Positions 5,148 through 49,882 of a stretch of DNA of 64,000 nucleotides are shown piece by piece. Position numbers and translations under genes: made by a program. Position 1 is the first letter of the stretch. The number at the start of each line of letters is the position of its first letter. Below the pieces are notes generated by a model. It searched no databases. It saw nothing but the letters and a program-made list of their open reading frames with translations, and was not told the DNA's origin. The stretch is from Blasia pusilla. Its lineage: Eukaryota. Where the stretch lies: contig CM114271.1 of NCBI GenBank assembly GCA_050084515.1, forward strand, positions 10,478,001 through 10,542,000, written 5' to 3'.

Positions 5148-6359
5148 TGTAATGTATAAGAGTTTCAATTTTACAATTTTTTACTAAGTTCGATCCCCAA
5201 GAGGATCATTGTTTGATGAAAACAGAGTTCCAAATTACAATTCTGTTGTAATAGTTGTATTTAGGTGTGAATAATTTAGATTCAATGTCTTATCAATATC
5301 TTCGGATCTTTCTTAGTACCAAGGTTTCTTTTCTCAATTCTCTCTAGTGGAGTTGATAGCACGCTCAGGTAAATTTCCTCTCGACATCAAGAAACCTCAC
5401 AGAGATCTCAACAAGAAAGCTGGCTTCTCCTACTGTCGGAACTCAATCCGTCTCGGCAGGCTACTCTCTGTCAAACAGATTTCCTACAACTCCATTTTGA
5501 TTATTCCATTGATGAGAAAGGTTTGCTTGATTCACTCTTCACTCTGCAGACCCAAAAAGAATACTCAGACATAAGCATTGCACATCAAAATGAAGGAATG
5601 AGTGCTTTACTACTCCATCAAGAATGAGAAAGCTTCAAAGTGTTTTACAAGCTCGAGAGGGTACTACTCCCTTGCTTGGACCATTCCTGTAGCATAAGGA
5701 CTTCGTAAGTGAATGATGATGATAGCTACTTTCATGTTTCTTAAATATTCTTTGAAGTAGGAGTGTTCCAAAGATTCGAAGCGTTCTTGATGAAGCTAGT
5801 GTCTCTTCAACATTTGTAACTACCTAGATCTATAGTGCTCTTCTCTTTTCCTAAGATCCCTATGAATCCCTATGAATTTGCTTGAGGTTGAAGCTCTTTC
5901 TCCTGATCTGAAGACAAAGCGCTCCATTCTTTGTTCTTGTTCCAGGTTCTTCGTTCTTCATGCTTCGTTCAAGAGCGAAGTACTTCTTTCTCTTCTTCTT
6001 CATGCTTCATGCTTCGTTCAAGAGCGAAGTACTTCTTTCTCTTCTTCTTCATGCTTCATGCTTCGTTCAGGAGCGAAGCACTTCATAGACAAGTTCTTAA
6101 TAGAGCTTTGTTGTCCTTTCGAAGCTTCTTGCTGGGTCTTACTGGGTCTTTATTTTATTCTCCTCTCCTCTCAGGCAAATCCTTGATTTACTATCTCTCT
6201 GCCTTGTCCTTGGAGCTTCTTGATTCATTTCAATCTCACTCATTCTTCTCCATAATAATATATAATAATAACCATAACATCAAAATCATAGTGTATATAC
6301 AAGTCTTCTTTGAATAAAAAGATGTAATTCATCAAAAGTACAAAATTGTGGGTATCACA
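5148..6359 (-). repeat. 5' LTR of Athila-like copy A
   Basis: TGTGATACCC...CATTACA on the minus strand. Homologous over most of its length to the solo LTR at 13958-15097. Confidence 0.85.
5955..6085. repeat. Short tandem repeat (~3 copies of ~40-45 bp, CTTCATGCTTCGTTCAAGAGCGAAGTACTTCTTTCTCTT) inside the LTR
   Basis: Direct repeats visible in the sequence. Confidence 0.8.
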
Positions 6360-8570
6360 ATATGCCTTCCTAGATCAAGTATTGAGTCATTACGGTGCAC
6401 TAGCTAAGGAGTTGACAAACCAGGGTACGGAGTTTCGCGGGGAGTTTTAGGCCTTGTGTGATCAGACGATGATCGACCACCGCACCACGTCACGAGATCA
6501 TCCCGAGGCGGATAGACTAGCAGAGAGGGTTGTGCAGACGGCGAAGAGAGGATTACGCAAGTATGGCTTGCAGAGAGGTCTCTTGGGAGATTGGGACCTC
6601 CAATTGCCGTGGTTGGCGATGAGATACAGATTCAGCAAGCAGACATCCTTAGCGTCTTTCTCACTCTACTTGCTACTTTATGGCCGAGAGTTAGATTCAC
6701 ATGCGGCCATTCGTCAAGATATTGGTGAGGTGTTGAACTGTGATGACCCTGATGCATGGATGCGAGCATGTTCTCAGAGGGTTAAGTTATTTTGGAGAGT
6801 CATGCCCATGGCGTTTGAGAACTTGGCGATTGCGCAACATGGGGATACGTTGAGGTATGCGACTATTTGGGGGAGGTGGTTATCGACCTACTATCTGGAG
6901 GTTTCATCAGGGAGACTATGTCTACTTGTAGCAGACGGCACCCATGACGTTGGATGTGACTGTAGGGCGCACTATCTTGAGAGTGCGTGAGATTTTGCCA
7001 TCCGATGTTTTCTTATATGAGGGACGCGATGGTATGGTTTGGAAGGACCATATGTGTAACTGTGCGCCATCTTATCTTTCGAACATTGACGGTACAATTG
7101 ATTCGAGAGGAGCGGTAAGAGGAGAGAGGAAGATATTGGCAACCCCTAGGGCCCTCTTGGTTTGAAGAGAGTTTCCAACATGTTGGAGAGAGGAAAGTTT
7201 TGACAAGTTGAAAAGGCAATTTTTTTCCAAAAATATTTGGCGGTGAAATTTTTTAAAATTTTTTTTTACCTGTTCAACCCGTTTGAATCCGACGAATTGC
7301 AATTTTTTGGTTTTTTCCTTCTGGTCAAGGAAAAAATTTCTTTTTTTGGGTTTTTTTAACGTTTGCAGTCCTTTAGACTCCAAACGTTAAAAAAACCCAA
7401 AAAATGAAAATTTTTCCCTTAACCAAAAAATAAAATTAAAAAATCCAAAGAATTGCAACCCATCACATGGTTGCACAAAAACGGACAAGTTCGGACATGG
7501 GTTACAAGAGGTGGGATCCACATTTATAGTCCATGATGGAAGGCAAGGCAAGGATGAGTGGAGCAATGAGGGAGGAGGGAGTGGAGGTGGAGGGAGGAAG
7601 AAACGAGGGAGTATGGAACACGAAGGCAAGTAAGGGGAAGGAGAAAGAAGGGAAAGGTGGGGCCCATATGAAAAAGTCCTTCCATAGGACGGACATAAGT
7701 CCACGGACATGGACATGTCCACGGACACGGACTTTGTCCACATCCAACCTTGACCCATCGGATTCCAACGGGTTGCACTAAGTTTGCTCTCTTCAAAAAA
7801 AATTTCCAAAAAAATTACTCACTTATTATCCATAATCTTCAAATTTTTTGGAGAGGGTTTCGGTTTTTTTTTCCTTTTGTGCCTTTTTTTTTAAGAGAGA
7901 CTCTCCTCTCTCCCTCTCTCCTGCCAAAATACCAGCCCCCGTTGATATGAGCTTAGCAGTAGTTCATGTAGGCTTGCGATGTATGCTGTGTGGTTTTGCC
8001 CGTGGTGCAACCACGATGCTAGTCTATGATGGATTTTTGAGAGGGTGGCATATGGCATGTCTGACCCCACCTCTCACTAGGGTTCCTCATGAACGATGAA
8101 TGTGTCCCAGATGTACATAGAGTAGGTAGTTCTAGATTCCGACTTGTGTGTGTGACAGGGATGACAAGAAGGTGACTAATGATGGGGCCATATGAGCACC
8201 CGACCTTCTTGCTCTTAGCGTCCGAGAGATGTATGTCATGGTAGGTAGGGATAGATGGCTATCTGGAGTTAGAGGGACCTAACCACCAGCTAGGGGGGCG
8301 ATTGGAGATACTTTGGTACTTCTTGTCTCGTTGTTTGGATGCCATGAGTTAGCATGGGAATGTGGGTGTTCATGTGTATGTTCGGTGACAGCGATGTATC
8401 TTGTGTAGCGATGTGTATGAGCACAATAGTTGTCACATCTTTTTGTTTGGATCCGCAAGATCAAGTAGAGTGCCTTCGGAGATACTGGAGGACAGCCTCA
8501 GGAGGTCAAGGATGACCTGCTGAGGTCACGGGTAACATGAGAGAGCAGGTTTCCCCTTCTCGATAATACC
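6360..8570 (+). mobile_element. 3' fragment of the DNMT/PHD Gypsy family (integrase core and C-terminus, degenerate PHD finger, PPT, repeat A', start of repeat B')
   Basis: ORF 6454-6990 (HRTTSRDHPEADRLAERVVQTAKRGL) is homologous to 13435-13947. PHD remnant CMLCG...WHMACL at ~7975-8118. PPT TAGGGGGGCGAT at 8291-8302. 8303-8428 matches the reverse complement of 37001-37126. Confidence 0.85.
7105..7940. mobile_element. Non-autonomous (MITE-like) DNA element inserted in the integrase C-terminus
   Basis: Interrupts the host frame NIDGTID|..SLAVVH. Degenerate flanking duplication ATTGATTCG(AG)/GTTGATATG(AG). The right end (...CTGCCAAAATACCAGCCCCC) is the reverse complement of the terminus at 56778. 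It contains AACCCGTTTGAATCCGACGAATTGC, a variant of the palindrome in that element. The left boundary is uncertain by a few bp. Confidence 0.75.
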
Positions 8571-12370: not shown

Positions 12371-12474
12371 TGTCGTGCAAATCCACATCGCCATACAACA
12401 TACATCGCTGACATACCATACTCACATACCTACATGACATAGATGAGAGCATCCACAAACACAAGTGTACCACA
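12371..12474 (-). repeat. Repeat A, outer copy (104 bp, TG...CA)
   Basis: Near-identical to 12847-12950. TGTGGTACAC...GCACGACA on the minus strand. Confidence 0.9.
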
Positions 12475-12476
12475 AT

Positions 12477-12844
12477 TGAAATCCGTGAAAGACCTACTGT
12501 CATAAAACACGTATAGAATCATATATAATCGAGCCAAACCCACTCCACGATGGGAAAATCCAGGTCAAAGCTTGCGGGAACCACCATAGCCAAGAGCTCT
12601 ACTCACTACCAAGGCTAATTCCCAACGCAACAGGCTCAACTCAAAGAACTAACTGTTCTTTGAGTGCACTCCACACTATATCCTCCAACCTAAGAGCGGG
12701 CCCTACTGGAAAAGTCACCCTCAACTGAGTAACCCCCAACCCTATGTATGAAACCGCATCTCTACTTAGACACTACAGTCCTACATAAGGTATGGCCTCT
12801 ACTAGCACACTATACTCTACGACATAATCTGTATGGTCATGACA
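12477..12844 (-). repeat. Repeat B, 3' copy (368 bp, TG...CA)
   Basis: About 20 mismatches by eye to 22994-23361. TGTCATGACC...GATTTCA on the minus strand. Confidence 0.92.
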
Positions 12845-12846
12845 AC

Positions 12847-12950
12847 TGTCGTGCGAATCCAAATCGTCATACAACATACATCGCTGACATACCATACTCA
12901 CATACCTACATAACATAGACGAGAGCATCCACAAACACAAGTGTACCACA
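12847..12950 (-). repeat. Repeat A, inner copy, immediately after the PPT
   Basis: Preceded on the minus strand by the purine tract TTAGGGGGGCGAGT (12951-12964). Confidence 0.9.
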
Positions 12951-13125
12951 ACTCGCCCCCCTAACTGGAGGTTAGGTCCCTCTAGGTCCCAAGTAGCCCT
13001 ATACATCTACTACATGCTACACACCTTCGTGGGTGTACGAATCAGAAGGCTGGGTGCTAGGTTGCCCCATTGTTAGTCGCACATCTGTAATCCATATCAT
13101 GCAAAGATCAAGTCATCTACCTCTC

Positions 13126-13270
13126 CTAAGTACATCGAGGACAAACCCACCTTCCAGTAGGAACAACATCCATACGTGGAGTCAAACACATCATGTGCCA
13201 ACCCCTAGAACACCGATCACACACCAACATACGGGCTGCGTTACCAGGAGACCCACACAACATGCACATC
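13126..13270 (-). CDS. PHD finger at the integrase C-terminus (part of the decayed pol)
   Basis: CMLCGSPGNAARMLVCDRCSRGWHMMCLTPRMDVVPTGRWVCPRC is a complete C4HC3 PHD pattern. Confidence 0.92.
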
Positions 13271-13957
13271 AAGCTAGCACGTATCAAGGCTAAGCTTGGG
13301 TCAACAGTACCATCCACATTTGGAAGATGATATGGCGCACAATTACGCACATGGTCCTTCCAAACAACTCCATCACGACCCTCCAACATGAGAACTCCAG
13401 AAGCTAACACCTTGCGCACTCGTAAAATAGTGCGTCATGCCGTCACATCCAACGTTTTCGGTGCAATGTGCTCCAAATAGACATAGTCCCCCACATGGAA
13501 CCTACAAATCGATGGTCGATAACCTCCACCCCGAATGGTTGCATACCGCAACGTATCCCTGTGTTGAGCAATGGCAAGATTCTCAAAGGCTGTTGGCATA
13601 ACTCTCCGAAAGAGCTCTGCCCGTTGAGAACACACTCTCATCCACATCTCTGGGTCATCAAGGTTCACCACCTCACTAGACTCCCAACGAATTGCTGCTG
13701 GCAAGTCTGGATCTTGGCCGTATAACAGAAAAGAAGGTGAGAAGGAAGCCAAGGATGCTTGGCGACTGAACCTATATCCCATGGCTAACCATGGCAACTG
13801 AATATCCCAGTCTCCAAGATGCCCCTTCTGTAGGCCATACTTGCGCAATGCCCTCTTCACCGTCTGAACCACACGCTCAGCCAAACCATCCGCCTCTGGA
13901 TGATCTTGAGACGTGGTCCTATGATCAATCAACGTCTTGTCACACAAGACCTCAAAC

Positions 13958-15097
13958 TGTAATGTATAAGAGTTTCTATTTTACAGTCGTTTTAATAAGT
14001 TCGATCCCCAAGAGGATCATTGTTTGATGAAAAGAGAGTTCGAAATTACAATTCTATTGTAATAGTTGTGTTAAAATGTATATGAGTTATATTCAATGTC
14101 TTATCAATATCTGCTGAACTTTCTTAGTACCAAAGGATCTTCTCTCGATTCACTCTAGTGGAATTGATAGCATGTTCAGGTAGATTTCCTCTCGATATCA
14201 AGAAACCTCACGAAGACCTCAACATGAAAGCTGGCTTCTCCTACTTTCGGAACTCAATCCGTCTCGGCAGGCTACACTCTGTCAAACAGATTTCCTACAA
14301 GTCATGTTGATTATTTCATTGATGAGAAAGGTTCGCCTGGTTCACTCTTCACTCTGCAGACCCAAAAAGAATACTCAGACATAAGCATTGCACATCAAAA
14401 TGAAGGAATGAGTGCTTTACTACTCCATCAAGAATGAGAAAGCTTCAAAGTGTTTTACAAGCTCGAGAGGGTACCACTCCCTTGCTCGGACCATTCCTGT
14501 AGCATAAGGACTTTGTAAGAGAATGATGATTATGGCTTCTGTCTTGCTTCTTAAATACTCGCTGGAGTAGAAGTGATCCAAAGATTCGAAGCGTTCTTGA
14601 TGAAGCTAGTGTCTCTTCACCATTTCTAACTACCTAGATCTATGGTTCTCTTAGCTTTTCCTACGATCCATGTGAATCCGCAGAACAAAATTGTCCTAAC
14701 TACCAATTTGATACAAAGGGTCGTGCCCCTTCCTAGTCTAACTGTTCTAATGTGCGTCGCTTGAAATCACAATCATTCTTAGCTTCGCTTCGCTGGTATG
14801 CTTCGTTATAGAGCAAAGCACTTCGTAGACAGAGCTTCGTTGAGCTTTGTTGAGCTTCGTTGACGTTCCGAAACTTCTTGCTGAGTCTTGAGACTTCGTT
14901 ATTGCATTTTCCTCTCCTCTAAGGCAAATCCTTGATCTTCCATCTCTCTGCCTTGTCCTAGGAGCTTTGTGATTCACTTTAATCTTACTCATTCCTCCTC
15001 ATAATAATAAATAATCATAATCATAATCATAATGTACAAGAGTCTTTGTTGAATAAAGAGATATATTCTTCAAAAGTACAAAATTTTGGGTATCACA
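13958..15097 (-). mobile_element. Solo LTR of the Athila-like family inserted in the integrase of DNMT-Gypsy copy 1
   Basis: Homologous to 5148-6359, with TG...CA ends. Flanks CAAAC/AAAAC are a 5-bp TSD with one mismatch. The host frame rejoins when it is removed. Confidence 0.88.
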
Positions 15098-15533
15098 AAA
15101 ACTCACCCTAAAACTGTGTACCTTGGTCGGTTAGCACTTCAGCTGGTGCACCAAAATGACTAAGCACTCTATCAAGAAACGCATACGCCGTTCCCTCACT
15201 TGCCTTGTCATCTAATGCCACCAACTCAACCCACTTGGAGAAGTGCTCCACCATCACCAACACATATCAATGATGTCGTACAATCAACGATAACGGTCCC
15301 GCAAAGTCCACACTCCAACGGTAACCCAACCCCATAATAGGCAAGGGGTGTAACTGTGGTGTAGGGGCATTGAATGATGCCCTCACCCGGTCACAAACCA
15401 TACAACGTGACACCAATTGCTGCACCTAAGTATGCATGCCACGCCACCAATACTGACCAAGCAGTAAGCTATATGTACGCTTTACCCCAAAATGTCCCAA
15501 CTCCTCATGGGCATGTCGCACAATGCGCTCTCT

Positions 15534-17390
15534 CTAAGCCAAATGCGGCACTACTTGTTGTCTACCATCCTCCCACATACGGAGAATACGTGTTCCCTCC
15601 AATCGATACCTCTTAGCACGTTGAAGAACACGGTCTCGCTCCTTGGCACTCACTATGCCTGGCACCCTACTGGTCCGTAGGAACTCCAACACCAACGCAT
15701 CATCATGAATATCATGCTGATCCGTACCACCATCTCCAACCTTAGGATCTGAAGGCTGGCCATCTATCCTCTGACTAGAGAAAGATGTCATGTGGTCCTC
15801 CATACTAGAGTCCACCCCTAACCAACATAAAAAGGCGAATGCATGCCAACCTGGCATTATCTCCTCATCAACCTCGCCATGCCATCTAGCCCCAGTTGCA
15901 TCCTCTTGGCTAGTACATGGGTTCCTACTCAACCCACCAGCATCAAGGTTGGCAACTCCAGGTCTATGTACCACTTGGAAGTCATACTCCTGTAAGATAA
16001 GAGCCCACCGTGCAAGCTTCCTTATAAGCTTGTCAGACTCCATCAACCACTTGAGCGGCTGGTGATTAGTAACAAGGGTAAACTCTTTGCCAAACAAGTA
16101 ACACCTAAAGTGTGCCATAGCCCACACTACTGCCAAGCACTCTCCCTCATATGAACTGTAGCGCGACTCCGCTGCATTATTCGAACGACTTGCATAGGCC
16201 ACCACAAACTCCATATGCTTATTATCATGTTGTGTCAACACCGCTCCAAGTCCCAACCTACTCCAATCAGTGTATAACTGAAATGGGTGCCCTCTGATAG
16301 GTCTCCTCAAGATAGGCGCCGCCACCAACTGGGCCTTGAGCTCCTCAAAAGCTCTCTCCTGATCATCTCCCCATTGCCACTCCTGATCTGATTTCAACAA
16401 TTGGTTCAAAGGCTTTGTCATAGTACTAAATCCCTTCACATACCTCTGATAGTAGTTCGCCAATCCCATGAATGCCCGAACTCTACTCACATCTACGGGA
16501 TGAGGAATAAGTGCAATAGCCTCCACCTTTGCTTGCTGAACTCCCAAACCACCTGGATAGATCACATGACCCAAGTACTCAACATCCTCATGGAAGAACT
16601 TACACTTTCCTGGATGCAAACGTAGACCATGAGCTTTCAACCGCTCAAACACAATCTGTAAATGTATCTAATGCTCCTCCACCGTGTTACTGAACACCAA
16701 GATATCATCAATGTAACATCGAACAAAATCCAACCCTGCTAGGATCCTGTCCATCACTCTCTGGAACTCCGCAAGTGCATTCTTCAACCCAAAGGGTAAG
16801 AATTTCCACTAGTACAAACAATCCTTGCCATGAGAGTTGACACCCCAAAATTTTGTCTTGGCCTTGTCACTCTCTCGAATTGGCAACTGATGATATCTTG
16901 CCCGATTATCCAAAGTACTGAAAATCTTTTCCTGTCCCACCACATCAAAGATCTCCTCAGGTGTAGGCATGGCATACCTATCAGCTTTGGTCTGCCGATT
17001 GATAGGACGGTAATCTCCACACAACAGCTCATCTGTGTAGTTGCCATGCACATCCTTTTTAGCAGGCATGACAATGGCTGATGCATACTCTCCATGCGAC
17101 AACTCCACTAATCCAGCCTCCAAAAGGTCCAACGTCCTACTCTGAATCATGTCCCTCTCCATATCACTATATCAGTAGGGACGACGGAAGATTGGCGTAT
17201 CACTAGCCAAATCAATCCGTATACTGGGTCCAACAAAAGCACCCAACTCCTTCATGCTAAAGGCAAAAAAAATCCTATCAGCACGTAGGAACTGTGTCAA
17301 GCGTCGTTTCTCACCTCCCGTAAGCTTGGGCCCAAGTAATTGCTCCCAAGTCTCCTCCATTGGCACACTAGAGAGAGAGGACGATGCCAT
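15534..17390 (-). pseudogene. RT and RNase H of DNMT-Gypsy copy 1
   Basis: CGDYRPIN, LPFGLKNA, YIDDILVFS (16690-16720), FQLYTDWS, SSYEGECLAVVW. Stops and frameshifts present. Confidence 0.92.
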
Positions 17391-17639
17391 TGGCTGCTAC
17401 GCAACCCCCTCACAAGATAGTACACCCTTAGTTACACCATTACCTGAACAAATAACTCCTCCACCAGCATGAGAAACCAACTCCACATGCCCAACCATTA
17501 CATCCCATTTACTCCAAGGATGCAAAATACTACTCTCCTCGCCCCCCGCCGATGCCTCTACCGTCCCGGTAGCCATTGAGCTCATCACAAGGGGTAGAAG
17601 ACACACAAACATAGTCCGAAATCGACTCTGCTCGGCCAT

Positions 17640-18600
17640 ACAAAGACTCAAAATCGAAGTCAAACAATTCAGGTCCATGGCCTGACCCAACACATGACGT
17701 CGTGAAGCCTCAGAAATGGAAGCAACCGCTATCACACCAGTAGCAAATCCCATCACACGCTCTCTCTCATCAGCGTTAGGCTCCACCAATTGTCGCACAT
17801 GAGAATCCCATACAAGCCCGAGACCACCTTCCCTGTAGGCATGTGACGAGGGAAAACTCATAAATGTGGGTAGTGCCATCCTAGGCTGGCCCACACGGTT
17901 CACCACTGCCATGGGTGACCGATCAATAACCCTCACCACCTGAGAAAGTCGCCCAATATCCAAGATACTATCCACTGTAAGGCAAGGATCCCGCCAGATC
18001 GCATCATATGCTCGACGTAGAACCTCCTAGGCAACAAGTTTGTCCACCATAAGCGTGGGCGATGTGCCTGTGATCAACTCGTTTGCATCCAACAACACCG
18101 CTGGTCCAATCCAAGACCGCACCTCATGAACACTCGCCATCATCCGGGTCCAAGTGTCATCCAACAATGGAACATTCTCCAGAATGTAAGCTCGAGCACG
18201 TGCCTGATGAACCTGAAGATGTCGTACCACCCGTAACATCTCCCAAAACAATCGAGACCTAGGGTCTTGTAATCCCTCACCATGACCAGCACGTGTATGA
18301 CCTTGACATGGCCATCCAGCAATCACCAAATCCACAAGACCAACCCTCTCAAGGTCCTGCGTCCCCAACAATGCAATGTGTGATGGCAAAGCACGCTGGT
18401 ACCCACGAATAGCTGATGGCGGCAACAACTCAGGATATCTCCGCATCAACTGACCAATATGCCGAGATGAGACTCTGTGTCCCGTCTCATCTCGCTCCAC
18501 ATACACGTATCTCCGCACAGGAATACCGGCCTGCAACACTGCAGCCAAACCAGTGCTAATCCCACCAAAGAGATCTAACACACAAATGCCCTCCGGCAGA
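17640..18600 (-). pseudogene. C5-cytosine DNA methyltransferase domain (DNMT3/DRM-like) within Gypsy pol, copy 1
   Basis: Motif I VLDLFGGI, motif II YVYVE, motif IV DLVIAGWPCQ, RSRLFWE, motif VI ILENV, motif VIII (frameshifted) RPRLWWTNL, motifs IX-X ERERVMGF...RRHVLGQAM. Confidence 0.92.
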
Positions 18601-21600
18601 TACTGCCATACAATGGGTTTAGTATCCAAAGGGGATAACCCAACTGGACCAGAAGTAGGAGTCCGCCTGGGGCCTCCTCTTCCTCGTGAGGTATAGTAGC
18701 CTCACACCAAGCCTCCTGCACTAGGCGATCAGCCTCCTGCACTAGGCGATCAGCCTCCTACCGTAGTGCACCACCTACACTCCAAAGTGGCACATCCAAC
18801 GATAAGGATGCCATTGCTGCAAAACTAGGGACCTCCTCTATCTCCTCATGCACAGAAGAATCCATAGGAGAAACATCACCCTCCAAAAAGTCTCATGGCC
18901 AAGTGACTACTCCACTAAAACCAGCCACAGATGCTAACACCGTTGGGGAAGACCCTCCTGGTCGAGCCCCACAAATAAATCTCACAGGAACTTGGCTCAT
19001 ATGTCCATCCCCTGTCTGCCAACCAGGTCTATAAGATGATGTCTCAGTCCAGTAATCCATCTCAAAACCCATTGAGTAAAATATTGCTCCTGCAACTAGT
19101 ACATCATACGACTCGGCTGATATGACCACTGGAGGTTCTCCCAACCGGGAGCTATCAGTCGCATGATCTGGTCTCAACTATACAGAGAACTTCTCCCGTG
19201 TCATGAATTGAGATCTATCATTGGCTCCTCCAAGTGATGTTTGAATCTGGAATGGGCAAGGCTCAAGCTCTGACCTCCAAATACTCAAACCAACACATGC
19301 CTCCTTTCCCAACATCAAAGGTTGGGCACCAAAGTCTAACAAGACTCTATCTGGTCTATACACTTGTCTTGTAGGACTCACCAATCAGAATATCCCATTC
19401 CAATTGTCCAACATACATACACCAGGTGTAAGCCTCTCACGATCAATGGCTGGCCGGGCTGGTAATGTATCCATCTTCGCCGCTGCTGCCTGCCAAGTAG
19501 CACTGGTACTCAATGCTACAATTGACATAGAGGGTCGCTCCACCGCAACACCCTCATCCATCTCAGCATGTGTAGCAATAACACCCCCACGTTCACACAA
19601 CGTGGCTGCTAGTTGAAATACAAGAGCTAAGTCAACTCCTAAAGCCATCAGCTCCGTGGTCGAAAAAAATGGGGATCCCAACACTGAAATTTCCATCCGC
19701 AATACTGCACTGGATGTTGCATCCGTGTCTACTACACACAATGTAGATGCCTTAGTCCCCACTGTCGGCTCAATAGGCTGCATAGGAACCATGGATGGAG
19801 TCCTAAGCACCTCAGACAACAAGAATGACTGGGGAAGCCTGGCCTGCCTCCCAGCCTCACCCCTCTGTGGGTCCAACTCCACAGTAGCACCACGTGGCTC
19901 TGACGCTCGAGTGGCTCCTCTCGTAACTATAGTTGATGCCTCAACCTGTGCTGCACTCGCCATATAAGAGAGATCATCCCCTCCATAAGAGGTGGAAGCC
20001 CCCTGCTCCCCAACGTGATCTATGCTGGATACCATCCATAATAGCCAACTTTTGCTCCAACTGCTCAATCCTGGCAGCCATAGCTGACTCTGTCGTAGTG
20101 GTAGGGGTAGCCACCGTAGGCTCTCCGACCACTAGTCCACCTCTACCACCCCTACCACCTCTACCACCTCTACCACCTCAGCCTCTCGGAGCTACTCCAC
20201 CACGGCCGCGGCCTGATCTCAACTCTGGATGAAGATCAAAGCAACGCTCTTGAGGATGACCTGGTCTCCCGCAATGATCACACTGAGTTGGGGCCGACTG
20301 AGGCCTATCCGTCTCCCATCCTCTTGGGGATAAAACTTCCTAACATGATCACCTCCACATATCCAACATGACTGTCCTTGCTGCGGGGCGGCAAATGAAG
20401 GCAATGGTCTCTACGCAAGTGTCCCTCTAGGACCTGACTGAGGTCGTGTGTACCCCCCACGACTCCCACTACTACTACGACCACCACTACTACGAGATTG
20501 TGAGGTGGGCTACTGAACACGAGAAGGAGTAGTTGTATCCCTACTAAATGCGGATGTCACCACTCTCTCCTTCACCATGTTAAGCTCAATCTTCTCAGAT
20601 AGAGCAAACACATGGGTCAATGTGGGTGAATCATCACTCATAAGAGTAGCATCACGTACCCTACGACGCAACTCTCTGTCCAAGATCCCATACCAAAACT
20701 GGACTGCTTGAACCTCAGTCACACCCTAGGTAACTGAAATCAAGCGTGGCATACAAGTGTATGCCTCACGAAGACTCTCACCAATCTTTCGCCCAAATTC
20801 TTGAAGACTCCTCAACTTCTCTGTCTTCACTCCCTGATAGTTCTTCTTCAACCTCTTGAAGAACTCTGCAACCGGGCTGAACGATGGTGGGGCACTAGTA
20901 CCTCCACTAGTACCCCCATTGGTACCTCCATGGGTACCTCCACTGGTACCCCCACTCTGGCTCGTACTCGTACCACTCAACGTTGGGTTGGCTGGCATAG
21001 TAGGAGCATTACTACCAATACCACCATGGGTGATAGACACATAGCTTGGAGACCAATATTGTCTCCACGCCTCAATCTCAACAACATGGTCCTTCCTAAA
21101 CTCATGGTAATAATCCATGGGTGGTCCCTCAATCTTTGAAACAACCCTTCCAAGCCAAGAAGGGTGTAAACAACGTATGCGTTCAACAACATGCATATCA
21201 CACCAGGTATCAAACTCCTGCATGAAGTACTCCAAGTCAATGGTGCCCACTGCACCCGAGTATCGTCGTGGGCCCTTCATGGCCCCATATATTCCGTCCA
21301 TGTCCCAAATCAATGGAGCTGCAACACTCGATAACAATGTAGAAGACTCGGTGTTTGGAACACCCTCGTCCTCCTCTTCATCAACCATCGGAAGTGGAAA
21401 AGGTAGCCAACACCTAAATCCACTCCGTGTGAAATCACTAGTGTCCACACCATGGTCCCCAACCAGACCACCTGACAGCTCCGTGATGACCAACGTTGAT
21501 GCCGCACCACCACTAAGTAACCAAGTGACGTCGATGTCACTGTAATATTCTAGCTCTACTAGCTGTGGGTGTAGGCAACCTAACCTGTCAACACCACAAG

Positions 21601-22981
21601 AAGCCTCCCACGGTCTACTGGTCATCACTCCAGCCTCACTACCGGTAGCATACAGGAGTAACACTACTCTGGAAATCAGCGTCAACCCTAACAATGGGCG
21701 CGTAAGCAAGAAACAACGATGGAGGGGATCCAAACAGAGGAAGTCCAACGACAACCCTCCAATCGCAAATGGAAATCAAGGTAACACAATCCACCAAACG
21801 TGGCACCCCTTGAATCCACAAAACCCACCACATAATTCTAACGCAATAGCTACTCCGCCGCAGGTCGATGACGTGCTAGTCGGACTCGCAGCACCTGAAA
21901 ATATCACCTGCATGGAGAGGCTACACTGTACTATGCGCTAGAAGTCCATCAACCAAAAACTTGAGATGCATAAAGCACCTAACATATCTCCAAACAACAC
22001 CAAATGAGCTACACTAGTGTGTATACTGGCATAGTTAAGAACTCAGCAGTTAAGAGTCTTCCAGGCAGAATAGCCCAAAGATGGGTGACCAGTTATGCAA
22101 CACTCAAATCACAATTCCTACAAAAATTCCTCACACCCAAGCAAGCAAGCTTGCTTGCTTGCTCCTTGCTCCTTACTCCGCCTCTCGCGCCTACTCGCCC
22201 CGAGCTACCACGAGTTGCCTCGAAGCCTTAAAACGCCAAGAAATGCCCCTATCGCCGCGTTCGCCACGCTTCGCCATGCTCCGCTATGGAGAGAGGCCCA
22301 ACCAGGGCGCCCCTAATGGGATAGGCGTCTCCAACAACGAACCAGTCACCAACCAACGAGCCCCTCCGATCTGCTGTCCACCATAGTAATTACTAGTCCG
22401 TGAAATTTCGATCAGCAATTACTCCACAAATCCTCAACCAAAATTGAATTTGTTTCAACCAGAATTCAATTGACCACCATAGCTATCTCTCCACAAAAAA
22501 TCAGCTACAACTGAGCTCCATACTCCGAGCTACAAATCAGACAAACTTGCTGTCCATACACCTCCAGAATCGCAAATCCGAGAACGCTTCCGCACAGATT
22601 CATGCACGCAGAAATCCGCAACGCTCCACACACTCAAGAATATAGCTTCACATGAGATCACAATACAAGTAGCAACAGGAACCTCTCACCCGATCTGGAT
22701 GAACTTCAACACAACTTCTGCACTCCAAGCTCTCCACATCAGAAAACCGTTGAACACGGACCAAAATCTTCAATCCTTGATAACTTCCAACTCCCTTGAC
22801 AAACTCTGGCGATCTAAAGCGCGTTGGAAAGCTCTCAGCAAGGCGTCTCTTTCCCAACCAACCACGCATCAGATTCCCACCTCCAAAATAGGCCACAAGC
22901 CATGAACATCCACGGCTGAGTACACAATCAGCCCTAACCAGATCCTAGTGATCCACAATCGAAGCTACCCTCGATCTACTC

Positions 22982-22994
22982 TAGTTCTTTGAGT
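22982..22994 (-). promoter_or_regulatory. Putative self-priming PBS (ACTCAAAGAACTA)
   Basis: Abuts repeat B, does not begin with a tRNA-type TGG, and is a 13/13 reverse complement of 12639-12651 in repeat B, ~30 nt downstream of a TATA-like motif. Confidence 0.7.
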
Positions 22995-23361
22995 GAAATC
23001 CGTGAAAGACCTACTGTCATGAAACACGTATAGAATCACATACAATTGAGCCAAACCCACTCCACGATGGGAGAATCCAGGTCGAAGCTTGCGGGATCCA
23101 CCATAGCCAAGAGCTCTACTCACTACCAAGGCTCACTCCCAACGCAACAGGCTCAACTCAAAGGACTAATTGTTCTTTGAGTGCAATCCACACTATATCC
23201 TCCAACCTAAGAGCGGGCTCTACTGGAAAAGTCACCCTCAACTGAGTAACCCCCAATCCTATGTATGAAACCGCATCTCTACCTAGACACTACGGCCCTA
23301 CATAAGGTATGGCCTCTACTAGCACAATATACTCTACGACATAATCCGGATGGTCATGACA
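22994..23361 (-). repeat. Repeat B, 5' copy
   Basis: Direct repeat of 12477-12844, not accompanied by repeat A. Confidence 0.92.
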
Positions 23362-24545
23362 AGGACTTCGAGTAGTCTTGTTCCAAGCCGTTGTGTCATT
23401 TTCATGGTAACATGGTGATACCTTTTCTTCCCACCATTGGATGGTGATGAATCTTTGCCTTAGCCTTGTCATTACATATTTCCACAACTTCAACGGTTCA
23501 AATCTGTCGTTTAAGCTCCCATGCTAATACCAAAAATCAAAAACCTCATTTAGGGTTTACAGTTTTTAATTCCATGTGTGAGTGGTCATTCGTAAATTTT
23601 CCTTTCCCCTATGTTCGTGGGGCTGGGTTGCCCCTTTGGGAAAAGTTTCATGATTTTTGGACTCATGGTTAAGCAAGAGGGGAGAAAATGGTGAATCAAG
23701 AAGAAGGACGAGGACTTTGAGTATTCTTGTTCCAAGCCGTTGTGTCATTTTCATGGTAACATGGTGATACCTTTTCTTCCCACCATTGGATGGTCATGAA
23801 TATTTTCCATAGCCCTGTCATGGGGGAGGATAGAAAAAGAGGTGTCAAGAAGGAGGATGAGTAGGATTCTTTTGAAGTCCTTATGGTTGTTTCATGTTAA
23901 TATGGTGTCAACGTTTGTTCCCACCGTTGGATGGTAATGAAACTTGGCACAGGCCTTGAAATAAAATCCCTCCACAATATGAACGGTTCAGATTTTTAGT
24001 TTAACCTCTAGAATAATACAACAAATTAAAGTCCTTATTTATCGTTTACAATTGGTAATTCAATGTGTGAGTGGTCTTTTGAAGTTTTTTTTTTAGTGTG
24101 TGTTCCTGGGGTTGGGGTGCCTTTGTGAGAAACTTCTCTTGTTTTTTTCACCCCTGGTCATGGGGGAGTATAGAAAAAGAGGTGTCAAGAAGGAGGATGA
24201 GGACATTGAGTAGGTTTCTTTTGAGGCCTTGTGGATGTTTCATGTTAATATGGTGTCAACTTTTGTTCCCACCATTGGATGGTGATGAAACTTGGCACAT
24301 GCCTTGAAATTAATTCCCTCCAAAACTTGAATGGCTCAGATCAGTCGTTTATCTCTCTAGGCTAATACAAAAAAAATTAGATTCTTATTTAGAATATATG
24401 ATTTTTAATTCAATGTGTAAGTGGTCTTTTGAGGTTTTTTCTTTTGGTTTGTGTTCCTAGGGTTGGGTGCCTCCTTGGGAAAATTTTCCTATTTTTTTTA
24501 CTCCTTGTTCACGGGGGAGGGTAGAAAAAGAGTTATCAAGAAGGA
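23362..24545. repeat. Degenerate tandem repeat, ~350-bp unit, about 3.5 copies
   Basis: TTCCCACCATTGGATGGTGATGAA-like core recurs near 23428, 23777, 23919 and 24267. 23362 and 23711 start near-identical blocks. Confidence 0.75.
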
Positions 24546-24746
24546 GACATGTTGCAGAATAAAAGTGTGTTTATGCTTTTGTAGCTTTGTGCCTAATCGG
24601 AGAGGACTGCCATGTGTTTGGCTCCCTCTCCCATTCTCTGCATGGCAACTTCTAAGATATGGTTTGATAGACAATGGCGGTGTTGCGATCTTAGGTCCTT
24701 TTAAATTACAGTCTGCCTTAGCTTGGCGACCATGGACCTACTGTGT

Positions 24747-28916
<4,170 letters not shown>

Positions 28917-33500: not shown

Positions 33501-36500
33501 AGAGGTGTCTACATACACTTGGAACGTCCTCGTCCAATCAGGAGGGCGAAGCACCGGAGTTGTTATCAATGTCTGCTTCAACTCCTCGAATGTAGCTTGA
33601 CAAGTTGGAGACCACTCCCACTCCTCGATCTTCTTCAGTAGGGTAGTTAAGGCTTCGCCTTTAGTGCATAATCTTTAATGAACCGGTTCATTAAAGATTA
33701 TGCACTAAACCCCACATGCCCCAAGAATCCTCTTAGCTCACAAAGACTCATAGGAGCTTCTAACTCTGAAATTATCTCCACCTTAGCCTTATCTACTTTG
33801 ATACCGCACGAAGATACTCGATGCCCCAATAGGATACCCTGCTTCATTGCAATGTGAGACTTATTCTGCTCCTCTAGTCTCTTGGATCTCCTTGGATGTG
33901 TAACAACTTCATCAGTTGCGGGTGAATCCCTACCATCCAAGAGCTGCTTTATCCACTTAGGGTATGACAACCATAGTGGAAGAGCAGGCTGCTCTTTGTA
34001 ATCATCACCAAATTCTTCTTCTTGATGATCAGATGTAAACATTGGTGGTGTGCTCTTGTGGGTTATCTCATCGTTTGATGATAATGTGGACCGACCACTG
34101 ATATCCGCCATTTGAAAAGGCTGTTCCTGGAACACCATATCACGACTCACAAGCATCTTCTTTGACTCAGAACACCATAGGCGATAAGCTTTAGCCTCAT
34201 CACTGTATCCCATAAAGATGCACTTCCTGCTCTTGGACTCCAGCTTGGTCCTAGATGCTCAGGAATATGTACAAAGCACTCACTACCAAAAGTCCTGAAA
34301 TGTTGGACTAATGGTACCTTACCTGAGTATGATTGATGAGGAGTCATGCCTTGCACTGACTTGGTAGCACTTCTATTTAGAATGTAAACGGCAGTATTAA
34401 CAGCTTCATCCCAAAATCCTTCTGTCAAACCTTTTTCTTTCATCATACATCTTGCCATCTCCACCACTGTACGGTTTCAACGCTCAACAACTCCATTTTG
34501 TTGTGGTGTATGTGCCGTGGTTAACTGTTGCCCGATTCCATGCTCCCCCAAATATTTGTTGAATTCTGTTGATAAGAATTCTCCTCCTCAATTGGTGCAA
34601 AGCTTCTGTACCTTCTTTCCTGTCTCATTCTCAACCAGCTTGTGCCATACTTTAAATTTTCCAAAAGCACTTGCCTTATCACGAAGGAAATACACCCACA
34701 TCTTCCAACTATAATCGTCGACAACTAAAAAGAAGTAGGAAGAACCACCTAATGCCAATGTTCTCATTTTACCACAGAGGTCAGCATGAATCAGCTTTAG
34801 AGGAGCCTTTGCTCTATTGCTGGACTCTTGTGGAAATGGTTTTCGGTGTCGCTTGCCCATCATACAAGCTTCACATGTATCCGACACTCCAGAAATTGTT
34901 GGTAAATCAACAACCATGCCAGATTTCTGCATCTGACTTAGTAAGGGGAAGCTTAGGTGACCAAATCTTTCATGCCACAACTTACTGCTACTAAGATCTA
35001 TACCTACACTTGTCTTGAAAGCATACAACTCGTAGATATTTCCACGTCGTATACCTTCATCCACTTATTTCCCATTGGCATCCTCAATGACTGCTCCAGT
35101 TTTCTTGAAACGAACTTCTAGGTCACGATCACATAATATTGCTATTGAAATCAAATTTTGCTTCAACTCTGGTACGTACAATACATCAGTTAACTTCTTT
35201 TCATCTCATTTTTGTGAGACTAAAGAAATTGTGCCTTTCCCTTATATAGGGCACTTTGGATTATTTCCAACAGTAACAACGATGGGCTCCTGTAGAGGCT
35301 GTAAGGAGCTATACCAGTCCTTATGATTGGTCATATGCCTAGATGCTCCACTATTGAGCACCCATGCATCTTCACTCTTTGACTTAATGGAATGTTTTGC
35401 TTGTGTGCAAAACTCTTCGATTGCTGCCCAAGCATCTACCTCATGCTCTCCTAGTTCTACAGAATTTCCAGACTCCTTCTTAGGTCTTAAACAACCGTTC
35501 TTCTCATTCTCACTTCTCTTTCTACAATCTTTGATAAGATGACCTAGCTTACCACAATAAAAGCATTTGAAGGCTTTCCTTAGAAATTTCTTCTTGACAT
35601 TTGAACTGTAATACTGATTTCTATCTCTCTGTACATTGGCAGTAAATGCTGCATCACTTCCCTCTCTTGCTTTGAAGCGCATTTCCTCTTCTACCAACAT
35701 TGCACTAAATTTTTCAAAAGTAAGCGGCCTAGGTCTTACTTACTTCAATTTTCAATGCAGTGACCAAACTGTCATACCTTGGAGGAAAAATCCTTATGCA
35801 TCGACGAGCCAAATCTTTGCTAGACTTTGAAATTCCTACAAACGCCATCTGATCTTGAAGATTCTTGATCCTTGTAAAAAATTGCTCCATGCTTTCTCCT
35901 TCTGAAAAGTTCTCGGACGTAAGCTAATTCTCCAGATTCTAAATCCGAGCCTCATTTCTCTTTTCATACTGATTCTTCAGAATGTTCCACGCCTCAGCAA
36001 CAGTGGTTGTATGTTGAATGAGAGTCATGACAAAATCAGTTATATTCGTGACAATCGCATATAGAGCATCAACTTTTCTGCGTTTCCATGCCAACAATAC
36101 AACATGATCGATATCCCTAGATGAAGATGAAGATGAACATGTAGAACTCAAAGTAGCTTGTGGATTCAAATCGACCCCTCTGGCCGTCTCCCAGATCTCA
36201 AATGATTGGAGGACAGTTCTCATTTTGAACTTCCATAATGTATAGTTAGACCCATCTAACTTCCCTTCACCCCGCACCTCATGCAATATAGGGTTAAATA
36301 ATCCTAGTAACGCTACTCCGTAAACCACCTACATCATATTACTATGACTCCTCCGACGTCTAAGTTGAAACCATCAATCTAGGCTTCTCCTCATACAAAG
36401 GGGGCCGATCAGATTAATGGTGATGAGAGAAGTGGATGTTGAGAATCCAACATGTCCTCCCTTCTTGCAGTTACCACATAGGGGATTCAACCCTACGGAT

Positions 36501-37000
36501 CTCTTTGGATTTGGACAATTCTTTGCGCAGTGTTTGGCTTCCCCACAATTATAACAAAAATTCCTCTTAATTGGTGGGATGAATGCTGCGGGCCCCATGA
36601 TATGACGTAGAGGCCTCTATTCTCCATACTCGGACGGTGCGTATCTAGGAATCCAACTACGAGGAGTACTAGCCCCGGGAACTTCCTGAACCGCGTAGCA
36701 TCCTTCCCACTGATCTGGCTCATACCATCCCTCATCCCTTGAGGGTTCTTCTTGCATCCAACGTAAATTTGGTTGAAGCGGACACTCTGGCATTGTATGC
36801 CCATGAGTTCCACAAGCGCTGCGCCAAGTGTACCTTTAGTTCGGCCATTTACTTTGTCAACTCATTGATGTCGGACTTCTCCCCATCCTTCTTAGTCTTA
36901 CGGGGGTGACTCACAGACTTGCCACTCTCTATCTTCGCGCTCGCGTCCTTATGCCCCGAACATTGTCTTGGGTGTCTTGATTTCTTCTTCTTCTTGCCCT
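30595..37000 (-). mobile_element. Athila-like Ty3/Gypsy copy C (gag 36453-37000; RT end, RH and INT 31865-33860; probable 3' LTR remnant left of the PPT at ~31810), disrupted by Copia and a deletion
   Basis: CYNCGEAKHCAKNC and CGNCKKGGH knuckles. ORFs 32807-33334, 32445-32627, 32124-32348 and 31865-32140 match copy B. Purine tract AAGGGAGGGGG at 31811-31821 on the minus strand. LTR limits are uncertain. Confidence 0.75.
33862..36452 (-). mobile_element. Truncated Ty1/Copia element (LTR remnant, gag, PR, INT; RT and RH missing)
   Basis: KLDGSNYTLWKFKMR, CFYCGKLGHLIKDC, WVLNSGASRHMT, WHERFGHL, IHADLCG, MGYSDEAKAYRLW, RRSKR. Starts TGTTGG at 36452 and is fused directly to Gypsy RT at ~33862. 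Confidence 0.9.
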
Positions 37001-40000
37001 TGTTATGCGCATACACATCGCTACACAACATACATCGCTGTCACCAAACACACACACAAACACGCACAATCCCAAGCTAACTCATGGCATCTAAACAACG
37101 AGACAAGAAGTACCAAAATATCTCCATTAAAATAAGATCCAATCTCTCTCACAACACCATAGTTCTCAAATGTGTGCACTCTCACACGTCTCTCTTAATG
37201 TCAAACCAAACCCACTCTCCTAATGAGAGGCTTGCGTTACACACACAAGGCAAGCAAGACCATAGCTCCACCGCCTCATGCCAAGAAGTTGAACAAAGAG
37301 AGAATGAGCTCTCAAGCTCACTCTCATTGAGGTATACCCCTCCCCTCTCCCAAGCTCTCTATACCATCACGTCCCTCCAATAAGAGAATACCATATGGCA
37401 AAATCTCACGCACTCTCAAGATGGTGCATCCTACAATCATATCCAAGATTGTGGGTGCCGTCTACTGCAAGTAGACATAGTCTCCCTGATAAAACCTCCA
37501 GATAGTAGGTCGATAACCACCTCCCCAAATAGTCGCAAACCTCAATGTATCCCGATGTTGCGCAATCGCCAAGTTCTCAAACGCCATGGGCATTACTCTC
37601 TAAAAAAACTCAGCCCTCTGAGCACATGCTTGCATCCATACATCAAGGTCTTCAAGGTTCAACATCTTACCAATATCTCGATGAATGGCCGTAGGTAAAT
37701 CTGGCTCTCGGCCATATAAAAGTAAGTATGGTGAGAAAGACGCTAAGGATGCCTGCCTGCTGAATCTGTACCCCATCGCCAACCACGGCGACTGGAGGTC
37801 CCAATCTCCTAGGTGACCTCTCTGCAAGCTATACTTGCGTAATCCTCTCTTCATTGTCTGCACAACCCGCTCCACTAGTCCATCTGCCTCTGGATGATCT
37901 CGCAAAGTAGTGGGGTGGTCGATCAATGCCTGATCACACAAGGCTTGAACTCCCCGCGGAACTCTGTACCTTGGTTTGTCAACACCTGAGCTGGTGCGCC
38001 ATAATGACTCAACACTCGATCTAGGAAGGCATAAGCTACTCCCTCACTCACTTTGTCAGGCAAGGAAACCAACTCTATCCACTTTGAGGAGTGTTCAACC
38101 ATCACCAACACATAACGACTATGGCGCTGGGTCAAAGGCAAAGGTCCTGCAAAATCCAAACTCCATCTATAACCTAAACCCATGATCGGAAGTGGATGCA
38201 ACTATGGATTCAGAGCATTGAACGATGCTCGGACTCAACCACACACCATGCATCTGGCAAGAAACTTCTGAACGTCAGTCTGCATGCCTGACCACCAATA
38301 CTGAACGTGGAGCAAGTTGTACGTTTGTTTCACTCCAAAATGACCCAAATCCTCATGGGCATGACACACCAAACGTGCTCTCTACAAAGGATGAGGCACT
38401 ACACGCACTCTACCATCCTCCCACACTCACAACACATATGTCCCCTCCCACTGAAACCGTTTGGCTCGCTGTAGGATCCGATCCCGCTCTCTAACATCCA
38501 CTGTGCTCGCGACACTGCTAGTACGTAGGTACTCCAAGATCACTCCATCGTCGTGAATGTCTCAGTCACATGTCGTCTCCTTACGGGCCTCTGGATCTAA
38601 GGACTCTCCATCAGACCTTGCCATAGAAGTCTCAGCAATCTGGCTCTCCATAACCAACAAGCCCAAATAGGCTGATGCATGCCATCTTGGCACCAACTCC
38701 CCATCACTCTCACCAAGCCAACGAGCTCCTCTTGCATCTCGCTGACTCGTGCATGGGTTACGGCTCAAACCATCTGCATCTTGGTTGAGCATCCCAGGTC
38801 TATGCACCACCTAGAAGTCATACTCCTGCAATAAAAGAGCTCACCTTGCAAGCTTCCCTATAAGGTTGTCGGACTCCATCAACCACTTAAGTGGCTGATA
38901 ATCAGTAATGATGGTAAAGGGATTACTGAATAGATAACATCTGAAATGTGTGATAGCCCATACTGCAGCCAAGCACTCATCCTCATACGAGCTTTACTTC
39001 GCCTCTATAGCGTTGTTCGAGCGACTAGCATAAGCCACCACAAACTTTCTATCATCATCGTCATGTTGGATGAGCACGGCTCCAAGCCCCAACATGCTCG
39101 AATCGGTATGCAACTCAAAAAGATGCCCCCTGATCGGTCTCCTCAATATGGGCACGGATGTCAATCTGTCCTTAAGCATCTGAAATGCTCTCTCCTGCTC
39201 ATCCCCCGCGGTGCCACTCCTGATCCACCTTGGTCAGCAAGGTCAGTGGCTTTGCAATCGAGCTAAAACCCTTGACGTACCGTCAATAGAAGTTTGCCAA
39301 TCCCATGAATGCACAAATTCGACTCACATTTATAGGGCGTGGAATGCGTGAAATAGCCTCTACCTTCATCTGCTGCACACCAAGGCCCCCTGGGTGTATC
39401 ATATGACCAAAGTACTCAATCTAGTCATAGAAGAACTTGCACTTGCCTGGATGTAGCTTCAGCCCATGTAATTGCAATTGTCGAAACACCTCCTCTAGAT
39501 GTCACTCATGCTCCTCAACCGTGGCGCTAAAGACTACGATGTCATCAATATAACACCTAGCAAAATCCAGACCTGCCAAGATCCTATCCATAACCCTCTG
39601 AAATTCAACCGGGCCTTGTTTAACCCAAATGGTAAGAATCCTTCTCGGAAGGATTGATATCCCGAAATGTCATCTTTTGCGTGTCCTCCAATCTAATAGG
39701 CAGCTGATGGTACTCGGCTCGAAGATCTAATGAACTGAAGACCTTTGCATGCCCAATAGCATCAAAGATCTCCTCAGGAGTGGGCATGGCATACTTATCA
39801 GACTTTGTCTGTCGATTGATAGGTCGGTAATCTCCACACATCTGCCTATCCGTCCACTTGCCATGCACATCCTTCTTGGCAGACATGACAGTGGTAGATG
39901 CATACTCTCCATGCGACATCTCCACTAGTCCAGCGCCAACCAAGTCCTGGCTCCTACACTGAATCAGAGCCCTCTCCATGTCAATGTACTTGTAGGGTCG

Positions 40001-49471: not shown

Positions 49472-49644
<173 letters not shown>

Positions 49645-49733
49645 GAAATCCACTCTCATTGGGAAAGTAACAAGCCAAAACATCCGCTATTTCAGTATGA
49701 CTAAACTCCTCTAAGGTGACAAACCTCTCATCT

Positions 49734-49882
<149 letters not shown>

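Follow-up and report, generated by a model that had tools for sequence, protein, structure and literature searches.

Two dead retrotransposon copies in Blasia pusilla: a probable liverwort Gypsy element with a DNMT3-like methyltransferase between protease and reverse transcriptase

Retrotransposons have captured DNA methyltransferases (DNMTs) repeatedly (PMC5890265; bioRxiv 10.64898/2026.05.21.726589). Inside Pol of a Gypsy-type element, a Dnmt3 domain was reported by de Mendoza et al. 2018, in the text portion cited, only for the charophyte alga Klebsormidium nitens, which has few copies of this element, KnitGypsy-Dnmt3 (PMC5890265); its figure legend gives Gypsy domains together with repeats in the order A-coding-B-A-B, as in DIRS elements. 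The 2026 preprint, citing the 2018 work, speaks of ‘streptophytes (Gypsy-DNMT3)’ (bioRxiv 10.64898/2026.05.21.726589), and a 2025 paper does likewise. Here we consider a 64 000-nt stretch of the genome of the liverwort Blasia pusilla (contig CM114271.1, positions 10 478 001 to 10 542 000; ‘the window’, with position 1 as its first letter). It holds two dead copies, A and B, from two diverged sublineages of what is probably a Gypsy element with the order gag, protease (PR), DNMT3-type methyltransferase, reverse transcriptase (RT), RNase H (RH), integrase (IN) and PHD finger; we are fairly confident in this explanation as a whole, less so in the mechanism proposed below.

Judged from sequence, the element is very probably a liverwort member of the Gypsy-DNMT3 kind, the same kind as KnitGypsy-Dnmt3. 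The two have in common an unrearranged Dnmt3-type domain in the Pol open reading frame (ORF) of a Gypsy-type element, purifying selection on this domain (Ka/Ks <0.2 in the published element, 0.21-0.34 here) and A-coding-B-A-B repeats, the last likened by published description rather than by sequence; the hosts differ, a charophyte alga versus a land plant. As the defining traits (a Dnmt3-type domain in Gypsy Pol, DIRS-like repeats) are shared with the Klebsormidium element, the novelty of the window’s element is lowered. So far as checked, four things are new: occurrence in liverworts, the large size of the environmental family, its two domain orders with a single split between them, and the PHD finger that they share. 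Marchantia, PHD fingers and bryophyte elements have no mention in the available portion of PMC5890265; our literature search, with subscription journals, figures and supplements outside it, found no description of a DNMT-bearing Gypsy element in liverworts and no mention of the four Marchantia gene identifiers concerned.

Three other systems are close enough for comparison. SymbioDIRS-Dnmt3 of Symbiodinium also has a Dnmt3-type domain and RT in one ORF and A-coding-B-A-B repeats, and two of its structures with different domain orders coexist, as in the window’s family; however, it belongs to the DIRS class, with a tyrosine recombinase instead of a DDE integrase, and activity of its DNMT (CG, de novo) was demonstrated in yeast, with none shown for the Gypsy type (PMC5890265, partial text). 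A phage-type integrase was not found by Pfam in the window copies or their intact relatives, in which rve and Integrase_H2C2 were matched instead. EpiLTRs of Cymbomonas and Euglena are likewise long terminal repeat (LTR) elements with a DNMT and a chromatin reader, but, as described in the partial text of the preprint, their DNMT is sister to DNMT4, lies at the 3′-end of pol and is accompanied by an adenine methyltransferase (DAM) and a chromodomain (bioRxiv 10.64898/2026.05.21.726589). The window elements, by comparison, have a DNMT3-type domain, no DAM and a PHD finger as reader. Chromoviruses resemble them in that their integrase ends, at its C terminus, in a histone-reading module, and differ in that the PHD finger of the window element stands in the chromodomain’s place. 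To our knowledge, no chromovirus carries a DNMT.

The methyltransferase domain in copies A and B

The first-pass annotation had placed a C5 methyltransferase between PR and RT of a Gypsy-type pol in copy A and, at the same position, in a second, diverged copy. Both placements held. PF00145 was matched above its Pfam cut-off of 22 bits in the copy A frame running from 18701 to 17397 (E = 7e-10, 39.3 bits; the one matching piece of the 10 scanned) and in the stop-free 332-aa ORF 41596-40598 of copy B (E = 1.6e-11, 44.6 bits). On the minus strand of either copy PR lies upstream of this domain and RT/RH downstream, and the sequence-based Ty3/Gypsy order of gag (CCHC), protease, RT, RNase H and integrase was borne out. 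By blastn, copies A and B are 71% identical in DNA from RT to IN and 65% identical in the DNMT; such values point to two sublineages, not recent sisters.

The frame of the domain agrees with its position. A single frame interrupted by stops alone extends in copy A from 18701 to 15534 (stops of its RT/RH part at 17399-17397, 17174-17172 and 16811-16809), so the DNMT is in frame with RT; the same is seen in copy B. P0077, an intact relative, has PR, DNMT and RT all in one frame. Copy A has one frame change between PR and DNMT, near 18660-18700. We considered a programmed frameshift at this junction and rejected it, since copies A and B have different frame offsets there and P0077 is a single ORF. 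Pfam gave no match for the protease on the window piece of copy A; Asp_protease_2 was matched at the corresponding place in P0077.

Alignment and motif coordinates show the motifs in the normal order I-IV-VI-VIII-IX-X, with no rearrangement. The motif list initially drawn up for 17640-18600 stood in most of its members: copy A has motif I (DLFGGISTG, 18575-18549), motif IV (GWPCQG, 18317-18300), motif VI (LENVP, 18182-18168), motif IX (ERERVMGF, 17768-17745) and motif X (LGQAMD, 17690-17673), all of them within that interval, as well as motif II. The list is right for the pair of copies, but for copy A its RxRxxWTN entry did not stand: motif VIII of copy A is lost, its stretch being scrambled and ended by an in-frame TAG at 18029-18027, and the motif occurs in altered form in copy B only (RAYRPHLWWTN, 40936-40904, with the second Arg replaced). 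Motifs I-VIII of copy B lie within the 332-aa open frame, and motifs IX and X at ∼40650-40560 in shifted frames. Neither window copy has the full set of catalytic motifs in an open frame. Both copies are dead, in agreement with their earlier description as decayed.

In a window full of nested insertions one could suspect an artefact: a chance insertion of a DNMT fragment or of another element, or a mis-assembly. Yet two copies with no more than 65-71% identity have the domain at the same position and in frame with RT, and the same order recurs in 28 of 35 metagenome loci, in the 2188-aa ORF P0077 and in Marchantia and Calypogeia proteins. Position, frame and relatives already refute a one-off event, whose probability we regard as negligible. 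Two diverged copies, relatives from liverworts and from the environment, and a low ratio of nonsynonymous to synonymous substitution rates (dN/dS of 0.21-0.34) between lineages argue instead for a family trait, as had been proposed.

We characterized the type of the domain by sequence and by predicted fold. A family profile compared with all Protein Data Bank (PDB) sequences, in an alignment spanning motifs I, IV, VI, VIII, IX and X, matched DNMT3A (7.3e-15), DNMT3B (7.3e-12) and DNMT3C (4e-11); weaker matches were plant DRM (5.3e-7), HaeIII (6.8e-6), HhaI (1.2e-4) and DNMT2 (3e-3). An AlphaFold2 model of the Calypogeia relative P0006, built from a 38-row alignment, had a predicted confidence (pLDDT) mostly of 88-98 over residues ∼300-640 and a poor N-terminal part. 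In a Foldseek search of the PDB with this model, DNMT3A/B/C were the only proteins among the matches listed (to rank 49; best 2.6e-17), with a TM score on the target of 0.76-0.84 for isolated catalytic-domain chains and 0.40-0.55 for longer chains. The methyltransferase is thus assigned to the DNMT3 type on the profile matches and on the modelled fold of an intact relative. Animal DNMT3A/3B/3C are the best match in both respects, with a motif VIII region AHRxRxxWxN and motifs IX and X that align; the family domain differs from them in identity (just 22-24%), in having neither PWWP nor ADD, in its location inside a retrotransposon polyprotein and, in the wider element family, in a motif IV that is often ECQ.

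Purifying selection was assessed with dN/dS by Nei-Gojobori. For the DNMT domain we obtained 0.21 between copies A and B (dS saturated) and 0.24-0.34 between copy A and five metagenome copies (dS 0.70-0.83); for RT/RH the A versus B values were 0.17-0.31. All lie well under 1, the outcome that the proposed family trait called for, and the substitution pattern indicates that the DNMT domain is under purifying selection between lineages.

Selection could also preserve a domain that no longer methylates, kept as a non-catalytic module for DNA or chromatin binding or for S-adenosylmethionine (SAM) sensing. Motif IV in the 139 family DNMT domains reads ECQ in 64, PCQ in 45 and another residue in 3, with no match in 27, and the ECQ form would favour such a module; so would the result that the KnitGypsy-Dnmt3 domain produced no methylation in yeast, which its authors call inconclusive (PMC5890265, partial text). 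On the other hand, human DNMT3B, the positive control of that assay, failed as well (same text), the Cys-Gln pair is kept in 126 of the 139 domains, the arginines of motif VIII (R.R..W.N) in 131, and the Glu-Asn of motif VI (EN[VT]) widely, in 109. Within the window’s clade of 16 rows PCQ is the commonest form (9 rows; ECQ 5, no match 2) and ENV is found in 13. In our view a non-catalytic role is unlikely. ECQ is in itself an unusual replacement of the conserved proline adjoining the catalytic cysteine.

Relatives, domain orders and origin

Word-seeded protein searches with the copy B ORF as query returned three proteins of similar length and seven longer ones. The named relatives are proteins of Marchantia polymorpha and Calypogeia fissa; the Marchantia models include a 1248-aa gag-PR-DNMT and a 1190-aa PR-DNMT-RT-RH protein. 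PF00145 exceeded its cut-off in seven of the eight relatives scanned, the eighth (P0012) reaching 21.3 bits against 22. An exhaustive profile search of representative proteins (clusters) gave 19 193 matches at E ≤ 1e-3, 2615 at 1e-10 and 510 at 1e-30; as the profile held RT-RH columns from one member, the looser counts include plain Gypsy elements. A homology search with a wider profile added no further named organisms, and no Klebsormidium sequence was among the matches of any search. For one relative cluster Streptophyta was the commonest label in the ESM Atlas (score 0.78), which we treat as a lead only; one relative fragment labelled as a bacterial metagenome-assembled genome was taken as a binning error.

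The set of 159 proteins (P0003-P0161) was divided by domain probes into four classes: (i) DNMT after RT/RH and/or before integrase (99 proteins, 38 of them a complete RT-RH-DNMT-IN-PHD); (ii) DNMT after gag/PR or before RT, the window order (17); (iii) DNMT only (42); (iv) RT-RH only (1). The family therefore has two domain orders, the commoner RT-RH-DNMT-IN-PHD and the window’s PR-DNMT-RT-RH-IN-PHD. Intact representatives exist: P0077 is an uninterrupted 2188-aa protein with Pfam matches to zf-CCHC, Asp_protease_2, DNA_methylase, RVT_1, RNase H, Integrase_H2C2 and rve, and an unbroken pol of 2027 aa at locus L023 combines RVT_1, RNase H, DNA_methylase, integrase and PHD. The PHD finger occupies the same position in relatives as in copy A.

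Of 594 pattern matches in a metagenome scan, 146 proved to be relatives, and 80 loci were retained. The first 35 of these comprised 28 loci of window order, four with RT-RH-DNMT, one with DNMT-IN and two with DNMT only, proportions that are biased by seeding and ranking the scan with window-type sequence. The 28 loci make up two subfamilies, with a DNMT ∼65-72% and ∼33-38% identical to the Marchantia probe.

Apart from these counts, we observed a cluster (P0181) of 20 RT-RH-DNMT-IN-PHD polyproteins, at least six of them of equal length, 1981 aa, on contigs of up to 690 kb; it looks like a recently active element in one organism. Two further proteins, P0182 and P0183, have a chromodomain together with a PHD finger in precomputed Pfam matches.

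Trees separated the two orders. In a FastTree of the 139 DNMT domains all 16 window-order rows, with two of unknown order, form one group (support 98), and a single order change suffices; both window copies fall in an eight-row group with Marchantia and Calypogeia proteins (support 100). An IQ-TREE mixture-model analysis of 56 rows gave the same order split (SH-aLRT 98). In a tree of 88 RT-C/RNase H rows copy A stands beside Marchantia P0009 and then the P0077 cluster; one order change suffices there as well, though just three rows are labelled window-type. As all trees are unrooted and have no host DNMT3 or DRM rows, neither the older order nor the direction of the domain move was inferred from them.

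These results bear on an alternative origin: a liverwort Gypsy element could have captured a host DNMT3 independently, its likeness to the Klebsormidium element being convergent, as is that of SymbioDIRS-Dnmt3 to KnitGypsy-Dnmt3. The repeated uptake of DNMTs by retrotransposons lends this some credit (PMC5890265; bioRxiv 10.64898/2026.05.21.726589), and the comparison with Klebsormidium is by description alone, the domain order of its element not being given in the text portion cited. However, sequences of the window type form a single clade next to an RH-DNMT-IN group of great diversity, both orders have the DNMT clade, integrase, PHD finger and split repeats in common, and the unusual combination of A-coding-B-A-B with a DDE integrase is also described for KnitGypsy-Dnmt3 (PMC5890265, partial text). 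With a DNMT and A-coding-B-A-B common to both elements, two independent origins are less likely than one; we consider independent capture quite improbable, and membership in the Gypsy-DNMT3 kind remains the preferred identity.

Terminal repeats, transcription and a possible mechanism

In element orientation, copy A consists of repeat A (23362-22994), the coding part, repeat B (12951-12847), a second A (12845-12477) and a second B (12475-12371). The same A-coding-B-A-B layout was found in four of 14 related loci (L012, L016, L019 and L032) and partially in two (L018 and L023); L002, where the locus ends at A2, and L008 have the A pair only, and in the other six of the 14 the split-repeat layout was not found. 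In the five complete cases A starts with TGTCATG, B ends with CACGACA(A) and a G-run stands directly before B1; with such ends the B|A junction is a near-palindrome. Compared with a canonical pair of identical LTRs with a polypurine tract directly before the 3′ LTR, the picture is mixed: the A pair has TG..CA ends, but the G-run precedes B1 rather than A2, and an extra B follows A2. Inspection by eye showed no canonical (TGG) primer-binding site after A1. Target-site duplications of 4 bp around A1...B2 were seen, again by eye, in two of the five elements (L012 and L019), a weak signal; copy A and L016 showed none, and the case of L032 was unclear. A literature search on split direct repeats of Gypsy and DIRS elements, of the same scope as the one above, turned up no description of a Gypsy element with A-coding-B-A-B.

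One could speculate that this layout equals a two-LTR circle whose LTR is B-A, primed from the G-run before B, and that the DDE integrase would open the circle at the palindromic B|A junction (…GACA|TGTC…).

Transcription was examined by mapping raw reads on copy A; they came from three stranded RNA runs that carry the same species label. The sequencing-run index itself listed no RNA run, and the DNA runs in it contained at most 0.48 of the sampled words. All 30 bins of copy A had RNA depth, ∼6-170-fold, and first mates were almost all on the plus strand, which, for a library of the usual kind, means minus-strand, sense RNA. Only 19 of 4261 reads of run X22 were at least 99% alike to copy A, most reads being 90-99% alike; 77 RNA reads join 13953 to 15099, thus skipping the 1.1-kb insertion of this copy, and reads part from copy A at 18067/18084, the site of the broken motif VIII. 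Given the low identity and the joins across the insertion, the source of the RNA is other members of the family rather than copy A.

Live copies would make the methyltransferase as part of Pol, after which it would be either freed by the protease or kept on the N-terminal side of RT. According to a published hypothesis, which the first-pass annotation also put forward, it would be packaged together with RT and could methylate the element’s new DNA or the insertion site de novo; by such self-methylation the element would set its own methylation state. The PHD finger may read histone H3 tails and so steer integration. We put this mechanism as a whole, self-methylation by a Pol-borne DNMT with PHD targeting, forward tentatively, at somewhat less than even chances.

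Several observations weigh against the interpretation given here. As both window copies are dead, activity of these copies has no support from the window, and the RNA speaks for related copies being transcribed, but not for their translation. For no Gypsy-DNMT3 has methyltransferase activity been demonstrated, the yeast assay of KnitGypsy-Dnmt3 included (PMC5890265, partial text). All four motif patterns occur together in just 77 of the 139 domains, many rows being fragments or decayed copies, and with ECQ in place of PCQ, catalysis may be altered or lost in some family members. The dN/dS of 0.46-1.0 among near-identical metagenome copies is the range anticipated for dead copies and lends no support. 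Finally, a common lineage with the Klebsormidium elements is drawn from shared traits, the family trees being unrooted and without Klebsormidium copies.

A wider reading joins these parts: an old Gypsy lineage with a DNMT3-type domain, PHD finger and split repeats, extending from streptophyte algae to land plants and abundant in environmental eukaryotes, in which the DNMT moved once between RH-IN and PR-RT and whose transcription persists in a liverwort that has a genetic model among its relatives; circle opening at B|A would give this lineage a mode of replication so far without a description among Gypsy elements. We find this conjunction rather doubtful; if true, self-methylation would be a widespread transposon strategy, testable in Marchantia. 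The only Gypsy example in print, as far as the cited text portions go, is algal. The presence of this kind of element also in liverworts, including annotated but unremarked Marchantia polymorpha proteins, the transcription of related copies and the size of the family move the question of what transposon-encoded cytosine methyltransferases do into a genetically tractable land plant. The replication and rearrangement of such elements can also be viewed in the light of the two domain orders and of split repeats that occur together with a DDE integrase.

Feature coordinates and surroundings of the elements

Table 1. Features of copies A and B and of the sequences inserted in them (window positions)
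Feature	Position	Strand	Evidence or remark
Copy A, whole element	~12371-23362	-	Gypsy-type LTR retrotransposon
Copy A repeat A1 (5′ terminal, 369 bp; TGTCATG start, TTTCA end)	22994-23362	-	94.6% identity to 12477-12845
Copy A gag region, CCHC-like knuckle CWICGGDH	20028-21775	-	tblastn, Marchantia P0008 residues 1-424 at 21301-20028; ORFs
Copy A aspartic protease region	18893-19384	-	Motif and homology; LLDFGA versus LLDSGA of relatives
Copy A C5 methyltransferase, DNMT3-type	17397-18701	-	PF00145 39.3 bits, motifs, alignment, break in tblastn high-scoring pair
Copy A RT and RNase H	15534-17396	-	RT_RNaseH 4.2e-35, RT_RNaseH_2 7e-32, RVT_1 5.4e-05
Copy A integrase core, beyond insertion	~15099-15533	-	Continuation of C-terminal part
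Foreign 1.1-kb insertion in copy A integrase	13958-15098	.	blastn A versus B; 90% match to 5148-5869
Copy A integrase C-terminal part	13435-13957	-	blastn to copy B 37364-37942 and 37960 onwards
Copy A PHD finger, C-terminal end of pol	13126-13434	-	PF00628 E 2.5e-11, 43.8 bits
Copy A repeat B1 (105 bp)	12847-12951	-	95.2% identity to 12371-12475; G-run (polypurine-like) directly before, A2 directly after
Copy A repeat A2	12477-12845	-	Pairs with A1
Copy A repeat B2, 3′-end of element (CACGACA end)	12371-12475	-	Pairs with B1
Copy B, whole element	~37128-56777	-	Split by nested Gypsy
Copy B 5′ terminal repeat remnant	56655-56777	-	Pairs with 37128-37250, 92.7% identity
Copy B gag region, displaced by nested insertion(s)	53408-54926	-	tblastn, P0008 residues 8-499, P0009 residues 57-185
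Copy B further gag piece	50596-50991	-	tblastn
Unrelated Gypsy nested in copy B between gag and PR	42237-48855	+	LTRs 42237-42466 and 48626-48855, 96% identity
Copy B protease region	41565-42185	-	tblastn P0008/P0009; ORF
Copy B DNMT domain	40523-41596	-	PF00145 44.6 bits; tblastn
Copy B RT and RNase H	38430-40216	-	tblastn, P0009 residues 696-1189
Copy B integrase	37600-38201	-	rve E 4.6e-08, at 38201-37923

The insertion in the copy A integrase is missing from copy B and from transcribed copies. A second copy of the inserted sequence lies at 5148-6360 (90% and 77% identity); its neighbour at 6443-7101 is a third, inverted fragment of the family’s integrase C-terminal region (73% identity to 13301-13958). 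This pair of neighbours thus occurs two times in the window, in different relative orientation.

Base composition is strongly asymmetric between strands in 12371-23362 and 37128-42236, the coding strand being G- and T-rich. On the plus strand the DNMT elements have C at 0.29-0.31, G at 0.18-0.20, a GC skew of about -0.2 to -0.27 and an excess of TpG (observed/expected 1.48). Their CpG observed/expected ratio is 0.56-0.65 versus 0.94 in the younger nested Gypsy; the depletion fits methylation-driven decay, but methylation by the element itself and by the host are not separable here, and we did not use it as evidence.

The nested plus-strand Gypsy is younger and has long open frames (688 aa for PR-RT, 295 aa, and 250 aa for integrase). 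Beside the 3′-end of copy B, at 34588-36861 on the minus strand, are Copia-type fragments (a gag knuckle and integrase-like ORFs). Directly upstream of the 5′ repeat of copy A, diverged tandem repeats with a unit of ∼350-490 bp occupy 23362-24546, and long arrays of an 8-base tandem repeat are located at 24687-25035 and 49390-49910.

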